Assembly (NCBI RefSeq): GCF_020969955.1
Contig: NZ_JAHDSX010000003.1
Location: 30,001-62,000, forward strand
Origin: Allobaculum fili
Lineage (GTDB): Bacteria > Bacillota_I > Bacilli_A > Erysipelotrichales > Erysipelotrichaceae
DNA length: 32,000 nucleotides
Direction of reading: 5' to 3'
A program made the position numbers and the translations under genes. Shown piece by piece: positions 5,908 to 16,859 of this stretch. The stretch's first letter is position 1. Each line of letters begins with the position of its first letter. The notes under the pieces were generated by a model. That model ran no database searches. It was given only the letters and a program-made list of their open reading frames with translations, and was not told the DNA's origin.

Positions 5908-6276
5908 TCAGCATGCTGCAGTGGACACAGAGTTTTTGAGATGTTCTGCCCACTTCTGGTCCATCTGCCTGCGAAACTGGATTTCTTCTTCGTCCTGCAG
6001 GCCGATAAAAACCAGACTTTGAATAGCGGGTGCATTGAACATGCACGTCTGCCTCGCACTGATCAGTCCTTCTGGCCAGCCAACAGCCGCATAGTCATAC
6101 AGTCGGCCCGTAGTGACATCCTGCTGGGCGCGACCGATAATCATAAACCGCTTATCCCCTTCCTTCAGGCAAACGATGCTGCCCAGAGGCAAAAAGGGCT
6201 TCAGTCCCGGTGACGACAGTTTTTCCGACTTTGAAGTGTCCGTTCGATCCTGCGGCTTGCTTTCTTCTTTTTCCAT
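5908..6276 (-). CDS. DUF4176-family protein (T7SS-associated small protein)
   Basis: FLPLGSIVCLKEGDKRFMIIGRAQQ....G.LYDYAAVGWPEGLI......MFN...I..LVFIGLQDEEE matches the DUF4176 pattern (LPLGSVV.LK.G.KK.MI.GR.Q......YDY....YPEG......FLFNH..I..V.F.G..DEEE). RBS AAGAGGAAA. Confidence 0.85.
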   Translation of the reverse strand: MEKEESKPQDRTDTSKSEKLSSPGLKPFLPLGSIVCLKEGDKRFMIIGRAQQDVTTGRLYDYAAVGWPEGLISARQTCMFNAPAIQSLVFIGLQDEEEIQFRRQMDQKWAEHLKNSVSTAAC

Positions 6277-6336
6277 AGCTGTTTCCTCTTTCGAAATTTA
6301 CTCTGTAGTGAATCTCTCAAACCGGTTTCGACTTAC

Positions 6337-13732: not shown

Positions 13733-15289
13733 TCATCTATTCATACGAGCCTGAATTGTCGAGAGCGAAAATTTGAGACGGCTTTTGTTTTCTCGAAAAT
13801 CATTCCAGGCTGGAAAAGTCATCGGATAGTTTCCACAAAAACGAATTGTTTTTCTCATCTTCCTGGCGATCGGTTTCCAGAGCGGAATTCGTAACCAGAG
13901 GAAAATCGAAAAGAGATCCTCTTTCTGAATTTCCTCTATGGAAGCAGCATCGTCTGAATCTGCGCTTTGCCAGTGCAAATACAGTTTCCAGAGATCCGGG
14001 GCGCGTTTGGCCAGAGCGTTCTGCATCGTTTCGTTTAAAGAAAGGGTCTGTCCGTTCTGCCGTTTTCCAATCAGCATGTACACGAGCGAACGCGCACACT
14101 CTCCGCTCATCTGTTCAGGAGTTTCGATCTCTGCCAGAAGGCGTTCGAGCCGATCTGGAGCGACCGCATCCGGCGTAAGGGCGACCATCTGCGCCATAAG
14201 CTCAAGCGGTTCCTGCCATCCGCTCTGGTCTGGGAGTTCTTCGAGCAGATCGTCCAGCTGCTTCTGCGGGATCAGGCCATACACTAAAAGCTCCAGCATC
14301 GCCTTTGAAAAGCGGATCGAATAGTTCGTATCGTCTGGCAGATGATCCATACAGAAGCCGGCCAGACTGCGATGTTCTTCGCGCAAAGCCGCTTTGGCCG
14401 CCACACTCCACTCCGCCGGGCTCAGTTTGCGCTGCGGGTTTTCTTCCAGAAGTCTGGCATACTGGGCGCACAAAACCGAGGCTTCGGGAAGTCCGTTCGA
14501 CGAGTCGAGCGCATACGCCAGCCGCTCATTTTCGCCTGCCTGGGAAGACATTCCAATCGGCAGCACGAGCATCAATACCGAACAGCACGCGACCAGAAAA
14601 AGGGACAGGATCAGCAGCGCGCTTTTCTTTCGCGATTTCTTAACGGCCTTTTTCATGGCCTTCAACGACGAGAATCGCCGTCTCGGATCGGTACTCAGTG
14701 CTGTCCACGCAATGAGCGAAGGTCCAAACATATGCAGATACAGACGGCCCAACCCGATCTGATCCGCTCGCTCATCCATGCGTGCACCGTCCGCGCCTTC
14801 AGGCGGCAGCGCGTCTTTATTGACGAAGACCGGACGCGTGCTCCCGATCGGCAGACAGGCATTGAAATCGATCAGTACGGCATGTCCGTTGTGGACCAGG
14901 ACGTTGTCGCCTTTCAAATCGAGATACAGATATCCGGCCTGATGCACCTGTTCGATCAGCGCAAGAATTTGAAGGAAGATTTCTTTTTTCGCCTTTCGCG
15001 AGGGGCGTTCGTGCAGCCATTCCTCTAACGAACAGCCCTCAAACCAGGTTTCCACCAGCGTGTGGGCATACAAATCGGATCCATACTCCACTAAAGAAGG
15101 AGTCCACATCGAATCGAGCTTTTCCAGAACGTCTTTTTCCCGTCGCAAAGCGTCCAGAACAACGGAGGGCGCATCGATCGGAACGCTTTTGCGCACGGCT
15201 TTCTTTTGGGAGAGCGGATGCATTACCAGATCGGTCTGGCCATGCGGCGTCTGCTTGAGCGTTTCGATCCAGATCCAGGATTCACTCAT
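13733..15289 (-). CDS. Single-pass membrane protein with N-terminal Hanks-type protein-kinase-like domain (EssB/YukC-like topology), 518 aa
   Basis: Kinase-like motifs: AVRK (beta3 Lys), catalytic loop YLDLKGDN (nt 14903-14920), DFN in place of DFG, PPE in place of APE. The Gly-rich loop is degenerate. TM ALLILSLFLVACCSVLMLVLPIG at residues ~224-246. ~270-aa helical extracytoplasmic domain. 8-nt overlap (ATGAGTGA) with the upstream FHA gene. Confidence 0.75.
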   Translation of the reverse strand: MSESWIWIETLKQTPHGQTDLVMHPLSQKKAVRKSVPIDAPSVVLDALRREKDVLEKLDSMWTPSLVEYGSDLYAHTLVETWFEGCSLEEWLHERPSRKAKKEIFLQILALIEQVHQAGYLYLDLKGDNVLVHNGHAVLIDFNACLPIGSTRPVFVNKDALPPEGADGARMDERADQIGLGRLYLHMFGPSLIAWTALSTDPRRRFSSLKAMKKAVKKSRKKSALLILSLFLVACCSVLMLVLPIGMSSQAGENERLAYALDSSNGLPEASVLCAQYARLLEENPQRKLSPAEWSVAAKAALREEHRSLAGFCMDHLPDDTNYSIRFSKAMLELLVYGLIPQKQLDDLLEELPDQSGWQEPLELMAQMVALTPDAVAPDRLERLLAEIETPEQMSGECARSLVYMLIGKRQNGQTLSLNETMQNALAKRAPDLWKLYLHWQSADSDDAASIEEIQKEDLFSIFLWLRIPLWKPIARKMRKTIRFCGNYPMTFPAWNDFRENKSRLKFSLSTIQARMNR

Positions 15290-16859
15290 GGAAAATCACC
15301 GTCCGGCTGCCCAGCCGAATTTCCATTCCGTCATGAAGGCGCATTTTCCGAATGACCCGCTTTCCGTTCAGCCATGTGCCATTGGTCGATTTCAGATCCT
15401 GGATGTACCACTTTCCCTGCGTATGCGTCAGCCGGGCATGGGTCAGTGAAATCGTGGGATCGATCAGAACGAGGGGACAGTCTGCCCGACGGCCAACAAC
15501 AATGTCCGCTCCCTCCAGGTCCAGCCGCTTCCCTTCCAGATCCAGAAACGCAGGGCACGCCAGTTCTTCCAGCAAAACCGTCGGATTCGCAGGCACTGCT
15601 CCTTTTCTGGATTTGGAAGTCGAAGAATTTCTTTTTGGCGTCATGCTGCGTTCTGGTTTCTGATCCTGCACAGCAGATTCGGATACCTGTTCTTCTCGTT
15701 TTGACAGATCGGGCTGGGATGAAGGATTGAATGCCCCCGAATCGGGCCAGAGCGGACGAGGGGCAAGCGGGCTCTCATGCGGGCTGCCGTAAGGCGTAAG
15801 AAGCGGTTCTTCGCGCACCGAAAGGGCGGAAGGTTCTTCAAGACCGTAAAGCGAAACCGAACCGCCAAAAGGCGTGTTGCTTTCTGGAACGCTGTGAGAT
15901 ATCGGATCGTCTTTTCTCGTTTTCCTTGCTTTCTTCCGTTTTTCTGTTTTCTTCGGATTGGAATCATCGGTTCCTTGCGGATTTGGTTCAAGCTTGAGAA
16001 GATGCGCTTTCTCTTTTGAAGACGTGTCGGAAAAAGGATCGAATGGCAATCCTTCGCTTTCTTCCCGGGAAAAATCAAGCGGGGAAAGCTTTCCGTCAAA
16101 ACTTTCGGGCTTTGCCTTTTCAGCCCGGGGAAACAGAGGAGAGCACGCCGCAAAGGACGTCTTCTCTTCATTCAGAGGATCCGTATTCGTATCCTCTTCT
16201 TCCGACTCGGTCCACACCAGATCGTCCTTTTCTTCCAAACCGCTCATCCCATCGCCGCGAAGCGGATAAAGCGGTTTGGACCGGACATAAGGCGGTATGT
16301 CTTTTTTCAGACAAAATCCGAACAGACGGTTTCTGGACAGAAAAAGCGTTTCAAGCTCCTGGAGAAGAGCATCCGTTTCCAGCCGGCCATTCGCCGCCAG
16401 AAACAGCAGCCCGCAGACGGCGCTCGCTTTCGGATCGAAATAGTCCAGCAGTTCCCGATACAAATGAAGCAGTTCCTCCTGCCGCTTCATCCAGGCTCGA
16501 AAATGAACCGGGGCCCGGACAAAGTAAAACGCGTCACCGCGAAGGGACAGAAAAATCGTTCGGGCGGAAAGCAGAACCGGCTGGCTTTGCATCGCCTTTA
16601 AAACCTGTTCAAGCAATCCATGCAGAAACTGACACGCCAGTCGGGTTTCCAAATGGCTCTGCACGAGAAAATCGTGCAGAGAAATCCGCTCTTCCAGGCT
16701 GTAGTACGCGCTGCAGGAAACAGGATCGAGGCGAATTAAGGAAAGAAAGCTTTCATCCTCCTCATTTTCCATAACCCGCTCGTCATACAGTTCGCGCTCT
16801 TTGACGCGCACCTGCAGGCGATTCGGTCCATAAACAATTTCTGTACATTCCATCAGCAT
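15282..16859 (-). CDS. FHA-domain protein (unknown N-terminal domain, long disordered linker, canonical C-terminal FHA), 525 aa
   Basis: C-terminal VVGRRADCPLVLIDPTISLTHARL...YIQDLKSTNGTWLNGKRV...LHDGMEIRLGSRTVIFHE carries all the conserved FHA phosphothreonine-binding positions (G-R, S-x-x-H, N-G). FHA core is about nt 15285-15506. RBS AAAGGAGAGAG. First gene of the locus. Confidence 0.85.
   Translation of the reverse strand: MLMECTEIVYGPNRLQVRVKERELYDERVMENEEDESFLSLIRLDPVSCSAYYSLEERISLHDFLVQSHLETRLACQFLHGLLEQVLKAMQSQPVLLSARTIFLSLRGDAFYFVRAPVHFRAWMKRQEELLHLYRELLDYFDPKASAVCGLLFLAANGRLETDALLQELETLFLSRNRLFGFCLKKDIPPYVRSKPLYPLRGDGMSGLEEKDDLVWTESEEEDTNTDPLNEEKTSFAACSPLFPRAEKAKPESFDGKLSPLDFSREESEGLPFDPFSDTSSKEKAHLLKLEPNPQGTDDSNPKKTEKRKKARKTRKDDPISHSVPESNTPFGGSVSLYGLEEPSALSVREEPLLTPYGSPHESPLAPRPLWPDSGAFNPSSQPDLSKREEQVSESAVQDQKPERSMTPKRNSSTSKSRKGAVPANPTVLLEELACPAFLDLEGKRLDLEGADIVVGRRADCPLVLIDPTISLTHARLTHTQGKWYIQDLKSTNGTWLNGKRVIRKMRLHDGMEIRLGSRTVIFHE

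Follow-up and report, generated by a model that had tools for sequence, protein, structure and literature searches.

The present work deals with a window of 32,000 nucleotides (nt) from Allobaculum fili (assembly GCF_020969955.1, contig NZ_JAHDSX010000003.1, forward-strand positions 30,001 to 62,000; hereafter, "the window" is this whole 32-kb stretch) and, within it, with a block of ten open reading frames (ORFs), all on the minus strand at positions 5908–16859, which resembles a locus for a type VII secretion system (T7SS). The genes are labelled g1 to g10 in the order of transcription, the FHA protein g1 coming first and the DUF4176 protein g10 last. The ORF map of the block, with the region preceding it, can be depicted as follows (aa, amino acids; bp, base pairs; TM, transmembrane):

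16860–16962: intergenic region of 103 bp between g1 and a divergent membrane-protein gene; probable promoter region of the operon, by geometry.
15282–16859, minus strand: g1, 525 aa; cytoplasmic adaptor resembling TsxJ, with a divergent DUF6382 at the N-terminus, a long linker rich in Ser, Thr, Pro and Glu, and an FHA domain of canonical type at the C-terminus.
13733–15289, minus strand: g2, 518 aa; TsxD-like single-pass membrane Ser/Thr kinase.
11768–13693, minus strand: g3, 641 aa; hypervariable protein, anchored to the membrane by its C-terminus, occupying the slot of TsxI or EsaA in other systems.
8341–11808, minus strand: g4, 1155 aa; EssC/TsxC-like FtsK/SpoIIIE ATPase, whose N-terminal FHA domain is followed by two TM helices, a spacer, a single competent NTPase domain called D1, and a C-terminal stretch of about 370 aa.
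8090–8344, minus strand: g5, 84 aa; candidate TsxB (YukD/EsaB-like), in ATGA overlap with the essC-like g4.
7685–7978, minus strand: g6, 97 aa; core WXG100 protein (TsxA1) with a WQG motif.
7297–7581, minus strand: g7, 94 aa; second WXG100 paralogue (TsxA2), with W-Q-S-P-A replacing WXG.
7118–7300, minus strand: g8, 60 aa; small protein whose sequence suggests a helical structure, proposed as a Lap-like partner of g9.
6337–7143, minus strand: g9, 268 aa; candidate effector or cargo; residues 5–62 or so form a helical hairpin at the N-terminus, ahead of a Gly/Ala-rich β domain.
5908–6276, minus strand: g10, 122 aa; DUF4176 protein, probable chaperone of g9.

The original prediction, made from the letters of the sequence, had placed ten co-directional minus-strand genes here, joined by overlaps (one of 8 nt, two of the ATGA kind, one of 26 nt and one of about 41 nt) or by gaps of 111 nt or less, and had read them as a single operon. 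All ten ORFs are present where it had placed them and all are intact. The junctions measured on the sequence agree with it in every size: g1 and g2 overlap by 8 nt (ATGAGTGA), g3 and g4 by 41 nt, g4 and g5 by 4 nt (ATGA), g7 and g8 again by 4 nt (ATGA), and g8 and g9 by 26 nt, while gaps of 39, 111, 103, and 60 nt separate g2 from g3, g5 from g6, g6 from g7, and g9 from g10, respectively. Judging from gene geometry alone, the promoter of the operon probably lies within positions 16860–16962; a promoter scan of the window gave no convincing sigma-70 consensus, a terminator scan was uninformative, and an Rfam scan of the window retrieved no match.

Relatives of the block were searched for in a scan where each species was represented by one genome and the four closest EssC-like proteins, aligned, served as the query, and the gene content of each locus was obtained by mapping iterated hidden Markov models (HMMs) of the window proteins onto six-frame ORFs. 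The scan retrieved 66 loci, nearly all of them from Erysipelotrichaceae, in genera that include Allobaculum, Dubosiella, Faecalicoccus, Holdemanella, Faecalitalea, Catenisphaera, Absicoccus, and Floccifex. The host of the window is itself an Allobaculum (Erysipelotrichaceae) and not a Clostridium; the original prediction had envisaged a comparison across Clostridia. The order g1-g2-g3-g4-(g5)-g6-g7-g8-g9-g10 recurs in about 35 species-level genomes, with an EssC identity among syntenic loci of just 27–45%. A conserved order at such identity values implies that the arrangement has been kept far beyond chance and that the block represents an old, vertically inherited unit. Furthermore, the ends of the block are sharp, running from g1 to the DUF4176 gene (as in Holdemanella biformis), and its usual neighbours are, upstream, the gene of a six-TM protein and, downstream, a lipoprotein-like gene together with one for a PpiC rotamase. 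The recurrent gene order, the tight overlaps and the sharp ends together uphold the reading of the ten genes as one unit. As for abundance, the 90%-identity cluster of the H. biformis EssC-like protein comprises 4091 members from public assemblies, and most of the 15 members listed are full length; this suggests that the system is common in gut metagenomes.

The types from T7SSc to T7SSj were defined by Garrett, Higginson & Palmer (2024, Microlife 5:uqae013; PMC11217815), and the statements on these types given below are taken from that survey. According to it, TsxJ (with DUF6382 and FHA), the single-pass membrane Ser/Thr kinase TsxD, and the large, C-terminally anchored TsxI occur in T7SSd, T7SSe, T7SSf, and T7SSj. 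TsxD has an EssB-like topology but a conserved active site; TsxI is an Ig-like protein with a Sec signal peptide plus a TM helix at its C-terminus, proposed as the replacement of EsaA, which is polytopic with 5–6 TM helices (Supplementary Data 3 of the survey). Every T7SSe locus has TseF (a PP2C), TseH, and TseK, and T7SSj loci have TsjF and TsjK; two WXG100 paralogues occur only in T7SSe and T7SSg; the ATPases of the types from c to j have four predicted nucleoside triphosphatase (NTPase) domains; and several TsxB proteins were recognized only from AlphaFold models. It is by these published compositions, and by the accession lists of the survey, that the locus was set apart from T7SSe and T7SSj.

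Domain calls on the window proteins were obtained from profile searches with Pfam and NCBIfam models, in which g3, g5, g8, and g9 matched no family. The labels originally attached to g1 (FHA protein), g2 (kinase-like single-pass membrane protein), g3 (tail-anchored protein of 641 aa), g4 (EssC-like ATPase), g6 and g7 (canonical WXG100 with WQG and WXG-like protein with WQS), and g10 (DUF4176) were borne out by the matches and hydrophobic segments described below for each of them. Two others stood in part: for g5, called YukD-sized, the position and the overlap were borne out, and a match to YukD/EsaB models was not found; for g9, called a Gly-rich protein of 268 aa, the protein was confirmed, and it is best read as an LXG-class effector with a DUF4176 chaperone rather than as merely Gly-rich.

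The g4 product carries an N-terminal FHA domain (Pfam, E = 3.8e-5) and an FtsK_SpoIIIE domain (E = 4.5e-22, residues 556–647), and its best NCBIfam models are those of EssC and EccCa. Its TM helices lie N-terminal of the NTPase domain, so that the membrane ATPase of the EccC/EssC type expected of any T7SS is encoded here. Against the EssC equivalog model TIGR03928 (FHA-TM-DUF-D1-D2-D3), g4 reaches 235 bits, the cut-off being 778, and the alignment covers D1 only (model positions 468–671); five homologues of the main group score 218–268 bits. The EssC-like proteins of the clade are about 1050–1230 aa long. In the PDB, Thermomonospora curvata EccC and YukB match g4 over residues 558–776 only. 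Across 35 homologues, D1 keeps the Walker A (GxTGxGKSE) and Walker B (VDEF) motifs without variation, and no P-loop was found downstream of D1 in their C-terminal regions of about 370 aa. Moreover, the profile of the 370-aa C-terminal region of g4 found no match in the PDB, and hhalign comparisons between regions of the EssC alignment (the spacer, D1, and two C-terminal slices) revealed no internal similarity.

The other general mark of a T7SS, a WXG100 protein encoded with the ATPase, is present twice, g6 and g7 both lying above the Pfam gathering score. For g6, the WXG100 match has an E-value of 7e-12 and TIGR03930 gives 49.4 bits versus a cut-off of 44.85; the W-x-G motif is invariant in the family. 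For g7, the values are E = 6e-8 and 33.3 bits versus 27.3, and all homologues have W-x-S-P-A/T-S/A instead. The g7 gene always adjoins g6, and its product is the probable heterodimer partner of g6.

The g1 product shows the two domains by which TsxJ is recognized, a C-terminal FHA (E = 3e-20, residues 453–517) and an N-terminal DUF6382, the latter sub-threshold (E = 2.4e-4, residues 21–145; 21.3 bits versus a gathering score of 26.7). Among 25 homologues, FHA was matched in all and DUF6382 in 14, in the same place and with a best E-value of 4e-5. The phosphothreonine-binding residues of the FHA domain (GR / SxxH / S-x-N-x-T) are kept in every homologue, and no TM segment was found in g1. Its length is 525–690 aa in the Allobaculum-like branch versus about 320 aa in other genera; that branch has long insertions rich in Ser, Thr, Pro, Asp, and Glu, probably disordered, in g1 (residues ~200–440) and in g3 (~200–400), which could be phosphorylation substrates.

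The g2 product has a Pkinase domain (E = 3.4e-10, residues 21–188) followed by one strong TM segment (residues 221–251; Kyte–Doolittle value 3.0). The Lys-rich stretch preceding this segment would imply that the kinase domain lies inside the cell and a C-terminal domain of about 265 aa outside; the latter may be helical. A PDB sequence search with g2 retrieved genuine kinases and not EssB/YukC, and the catalytic motifs (β3 Lys, αC Glu, D-L-K-x-x-N, and D-F-N) are kept in about 30 of 33 homologues. The protein is, therefore, a single-pass membrane Ser/Thr kinase with a conserved active site, as TsxD is, with two caveats that are weighed below; its EssB-like topology suggests a functional analogue of a standard part rather than an unrelated addition. 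In two loci, L012 (3283–4746; Allobaculum sp., a metagenome-assembled genome, MAG) and L013 (6560–7999; A. stercoricanis DSM 13633), the catalytic Asp and Asn and the Asp of DFN have disappeared from the g2 orthologue. This looks like a transition from kinase to pseudokinase inside one orthologous group and may be reminiscent of EssB.

The slot of g3 is filled in every locus by a gene encoding 388–790 aa. In the window the last 41 nt of g3 overlap the start of the essC-like g4, and across loci the slot gene likewise overlaps the essC-like start. The homologues are only 12–27% identical and end either in a TM segment with an RRRR tail or in an amphipathic Trp/Lys helix; g3 itself has a single weak C-terminal hydrophobic segment. 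An N-terminal signal peptide is absent from g3 and from all slot homologues examined. The g3 profile retrieved nothing significant from the PDB, and in Pfam scans of 26 homologues the Ig-like matches were sub-threshold and limited to a few members. The versions with an amphipathic helix would argue for a cytoplasmic protein tethered at the membrane's inner face; rapid divergence, together with the basic tail that follows the hydrophobic segment, would fit an exposed one.

Within the main group, only the Allobaculum-like clade yielded members of the g5 family; two second-group loci yielded further ones. Its sequence pattern ends R/P-L-S-x-L-x-I-x-D-x-D-x-L, as in EsaB/YukD, and hhalign of g5 against YukD/EsaB gave a weak match (P = 0.008, 63 collinear columns). 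The protein may be a ubiquitin-like TsxB.

The last three genes seem to form a cargo module. The g8 gene is present in 34 loci, always between the second WXG100 gene (g7) and g9, with the conserved pattern YY..L...L....EE....I...Q..E; we propose its product as a putative Lap-like partner of g9. The g9 gene is present in 35 loci, with a near-constant length. In the AlphaFold model built from 10 sequences (predicted local distance difference test, pLDDT, 63.7; 74–87 in the β core), a helical hairpin is followed by eight to ten antiparallel strands of 20–25 residues, several of them strongly amphipathic (z about 3); compared with PDB folds, the model has no significant match, the weak top ones being pore-state MACPF proteins and outer-membrane barrels. 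An exhaustive profile search among 1.84 billion representatives assigned 213 clusters to the g9 family; some 45 of them are relatives over the full length (about 265 aa), and the others have only the C-terminal β domain, behind a longer N-terminal region. This β domain is an uncharacterized family with no Pfam model; in one relative (P0263, 471 aa) it follows a bona fide LXG domain and in another (P0230, 731 aa) an Mbeg1-like/class-3 lipase domain.

The DUF4176 match of g10 covers the full-length model (E = 1.3e-24), and the gene is in every case the next one downstream of g9. Genes for DUF4176 proteins lie downstream of those for LXG effectors, which the DUF4176 proteins stabilize before export (PMC12482557), and g9 and g10 reproduce this pairing, with a DUF4176 gene directly downstream of an effector that has an N-terminal helical domain. 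The LXG Pfam domain (about 200 aa) has no match in g9, whose helical region is just about 60 aa. Because the β domain follows LXG in P0263, and given the known role of DUF4176, the best reading of the model is that g9 would be a conserved cargo of the LXG class whose targeting domain is shortened, with g10 as its chaperone. No immunity gene lies next to the block, g10 being its last gene, and g9 is non-polymorphic; this argues against a classical antibacterial toxin, and g9 is a candidate for a host- or envelope-directed factor instead.

On the whole, we consider it probable that the locus is a complete, vertically inherited T7SS of an Erysipelotrichaceae-specific subtype, with a machinery more like that of T7SSe and T7SSj than that of T7SSb. 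Starting from what was observed, namely which parts there are, which of their catalytic and binding residues are conserved, how they are ordered, and that they are inherited together, the following scenario can be envisaged. The g4 protein would be the membrane translocase motor, presumably an oligomer, driven by its single competent FtsK-type NTPase domain. Beside it, in the position of EssB, g2 would phosphorylate threonines through its kinase domain on signals from the outside domain, and the FHA domain of g1 would read these phosphothreonines and switch assembly or activity on, as the FHA domain of EssC might do in most of the family; this phospho-switch is suggested by analogy with the type VI threonine-phosphorylation pathway. 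The g3 protein would serve as a fast-evolving, membrane-anchored accessory translationally coupled to EssC, and g5 as a ubiquitin-like assembly factor of the Allobaculum branch only. The core secreted heterodimer would consist of g6 and g7. Lastly, g8, g9, and g10 would act as one cargo module, in which the targeting hairpin of g9 is completed by g8, and g10 holds the β-rich, possibly membrane-inserting C-terminal domain of g9 until export.

Several points weigh against this interpretation. Export by the locus is itself argued from genes, models and analogy. No PP2C match was found in any scanned protein of the window, the unscanned ORFs of at least 200 aa being shadow ORFs inside other genes, so a reversible phospho-switch would need an unlinked enzyme. 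The same step is challenged by g2, which has no Gly-rich loop, and by the L012 and L013 loci, where g2 is a pseudokinase while the FHA domain of g1 is still canonical; catalysis may, therefore, be dispensable and g2 mainly a scaffold, a role that is a live alternative to the phospho-switch. In g4, the key Arg of the FHA domain is lost in the clade of the window (it is canonical in most homologues and genera), and the AlphaFold model built from four sequences is too poor (pLDDT 34) for counting NTPase domains. The g5 family (12 members) had no match in Pfam or in PDB sequence searches. For g3, a search of 5.8 billion proteins returned only the self-match, and no Pfam or NCBIfam family was found. 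The g9 model has only moderate confidence and no significant structural match.

We then considered whether the locus could be a member of T7SSe or T7SSj in which a few genes have been lost or left unannotated. The common presence of TsxJ, TsxD, an FHA-bearing TsxC, a possible TsxB, and two WXG100 paralogues would be in line with such membership. Nevertheless, counterparts of TseF, TseH, and TseK, or of TsjF and TsjK, are absent from the operon and from the 32-kb window: the operon has no unassigned ORF that could encode TsxH or TsxK, and g5, g8, and g10 have no TM segment. Moreover, g3 does not have the Sec signal peptide of TsxI, and one NTPase domain is detectable instead of four. The accession lists point in the same direction. 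None of the eleven RefSeq ATPase accessions of the clade that were checked is listed in Supplementary Data 5 of PMC11217815, where the positive control WP_136789995 was found; ten of the eleven are WP_003864073, WP_022789851, WP_076340357, WP_154460935, WP_128519982, WP_035401981, WP_117995678, WP_276889952, WP_288162112, and WP_303970980. No genus of Erysipelotrichaceae is named in the supplements. The names given by NCBI to the ATPases of the clade are just "FtsK/SpoIIIE" or "FHA domain-containing protein", and a literature search found type VII secretion tied to these genera in passing mentions at most. According to these data, membership in T7SSe or T7SSj appears unlikely.

A second possibility is that the locus represents a highly diverged T7SSb, in which g2 is EssB, g3 is EsaA or EssA, and g5 is EsaB, all hidden by sequence drift. 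The topology of g2 is that of EssB (a kinase fold, one TM segment, and an outside domain read as helical), the N-terminal FHA of g4 is placed as in T7SSb, and DUF4176 is a family associated with T7SSb. However, g2 matches genuine kinases and retains the catalytic residues missing in EssB; the YukC, EssB, EsaA, and EssA models match no protein of the operon, even at E = 0.1; g3 has at most one C-terminal anchor versus the polytopic EsaA; there are an extra DUF6382 plus FHA protein and a second core WXG100; and g4, shorter than EssC by 250–400 aa, matches it over D1 only. We regard a diverged T7SSb as highly improbable. The same results settle most of what the original prediction had said on this score. 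Its view of a divergent system other than T7SSb agrees with the absence of EssB, EsaA, and EssA matches in the profile-HMM searches and with the score of g4 far below the TIGR03928 cut-off; EsaA and EssA, which it had failed to see, match no operon protein, and gaps of 111 nt or less leave no room for EssA; and the substrates, which it had placed last, are indeed encoded last across loci. Its claim of three non-standard machinery genes has been overtaken; they do not lack precedent, parts of these kinds (TsxJ, TsxD, and TsxI) having been described in PMC11217815.

The least credible reading is a decaying or non-secretory remnant, with the FtsK-like ATPase and WXG100 proteins serving something besides export, since a single competent NTPase domain, a degenerate EssC FHA in the clade of the window, a kinase that is dead in two genomes, and a g5 absent from most genera are set against ten intact ORFs, an order and overlaps kept in about 35 species, invariant D1 motifs, and EssC-like clusters abundant in gut metagenomes.

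Returning to the reading of a complete T7SS specific to Erysipelotrichaceae, we propose, more tentatively and with slightly less than even confidence, that it could be an eleventh, unnamed T7SS subtype, confined to this family and abundant in metagenomes of the mammalian gut. It would combine a single-NTPase translocase, a phosphatase-free kinase/FHA layer turning EssB-like in some Allobaculum, a hypervariable anchored protein that replaces EsaA or TsxI, and a universal, non-polymorphic cargo whose amphipathic β-hairpins form a membrane pore or a surface structure.

To our knowledge, T7SSs outside mycobacteria, staphylococci, and bacilli are known almost only from one comparative-genomics survey of 2024, and we know of no experimental study of these variants. 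The variant described here is found in gut commensals that can be cultured and are abundant, among them Holdemanella biformis, Dubosiella newyorkensis, Faecalicoccus, Faecalitalea, and Allobaculum, and it might serve as a model for asking (i) whether kinase and FHA parts gate T7SS assembly via phosphothreonine, (ii) what the minimum number of NTPase domains in an EssC-type motor is, and (iii) whether the EssB pseudokinase of T7SSb descended from an active kinase.

As for the genes surrounding the block, these are, one per line:

18388–19671, minus strand: protein of 427 aa with about six N-terminal TM segments and no Pfam family, its C-terminal half being TPR-like by eye.
17794–18321, minus strand: NUDIX hydrolase gene, flanking one edge of the block.
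16963–17610, plus strand: divergent membrane protein, about 215 aa long and hydrophobic around residues 28–55 and 123–158.
5348–5776, plus strand: transposon-related HTH_Tnp_2 gene, flanking the other edge.
4161–5195, plus strand: protein of 344 aa.
23124–31829, minus strand: three large genes, whose products are a DUF4062 protein of 367 aa, a protein of 887 aa that matches no family and has TM segments in its N-terminal part, and a protein of 1538 aa.

The six-TM protein was considered as the missing polytopic component. Its gene is co-directional and lies upstream of the operon in 25 loci; it is missing upstream of the Faecalicoccus, OPF54, and M10-2 blocks, and the divergent gene intervenes, so we rejected it as a component and regard it as probably a syntenic neighbour. 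Homologues of the divergent membrane protein hold the same position in seven loci and are conserved in the Allobaculum branch only. The NUDIX and HTH_Tnp_2 genes look like local insertions because they have no counterpart there in related loci. An ORF on the minus strand at 4140–5300 (386 aa) was rejected as a gene, being the shadow of the real gene at 4161–5195, whose product has strong homologues (E down to 1e-116) beside the rotamase gene in 25 loci. The 1538-aa protein has several TM segments in its N-terminal part and, in its C-terminal part, a weak metallopeptidase-like match (DUF6782/DUF6055, E about 1e-3); in the other loci that were inspected closely, the three large genes were not seen beside the block.

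Other Erysipelotrichaceae (loci L041–L061, including Solobacterium and Bulleidia MAGs) carry a second T7SS-like cluster, a minimal one. In Erysipelotrichaceae bacterium NK3D112 (L061, positions 5362–12227), it encodes two WXG100 proteins, a 707-aa protein, an EssC of about 1280 aa scoring 419 bits to TIGR03928 (still under the cut-off), and a 76-aa protein; in L042, the last small protein is of 83 aa. No kinase or FHA protein was detected beside the L061 and L042 clusters, and their flanking ORFs, read from N-terminal sequences only, look housekeeping.

In comparison with the known systems, T7SSe shares with the locus an FHA-bearing ATPase of the EssC type, the A1/A2 pair of WXG100 proteins, a small candidate B with no InterPro recognition, a single-pass Ser/Thr kinase D, a cytoplasmic J with DUF6382 and FHA, and a large, C-terminally anchored protein in the slot of I beside the ATPase. 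Unlike T7SSe, the locus has neither the PP2C F nor a single-TM H or K; the protein in the slot of I is shorter, with neither a signal peptide nor demonstrable Ig repeats; the ATPase, of 1050–1230 aa, has one recognizable NTPase domain; the B gene was detected in one branch of the main group only; and the core block includes the conserved module of the 60-aa, the 268-aa, and the DUF4176 proteins. T7SSj, known from a few Clostridium species, resembles the locus in having A, C (its FHA with a phosphothreonine-binding motif), D, and J, with a B and an I for which the locus has candidates, and no TsxH, whereas its F, its K, its single WXG100, and the TPR outside domain of TsjD were not found in the locus, Pfam giving no TPR on g2.

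T7SSb (the Ess system of Staphylococcus aureus and the Yuk system of Bacillus subtilis) has in common with the locus a membrane FtsK/SpoIIIE ATPase with an N-terminal FHA, a WXG100 substrate, a single-pass partner with a kinase fold and an equivalent topology (EssB), and DUF4176 chaperones accompanying LXG-type effectors. In contrast to T7SSb, the locus has no EsaA, EssA, or EssB homologues and its kinase keeps the catalytic residues; it adds an FHA adaptor and has two core WXG100 proteins, with the machinery genes ahead of the WXG100 genes; and its effector is conserved, not polymorphic, and has no adjacent immunity gene. Outside the T7SSs, the type VI threonine-phosphorylation pathway, with a membrane kinase and an FHA protein in Agrobacterium, has been invoked in PMC11217815. 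The likeness to the locus consists in a membrane Ser/Thr kinase and an FHA adaptor encoded with a secretion ATPase; type VI secretion is an unrelated machine, alike in logic only, and usually has a PP2C, absent from the locus. As far as sequences allow a judgement, the locus appears closest to T7SSe and T7SSj, yet it falls outside their definitions; what is new is an uncatalogued composition in Erysipelotrichaceae, assembled from kinds of parts that were already known from PMC11217815.

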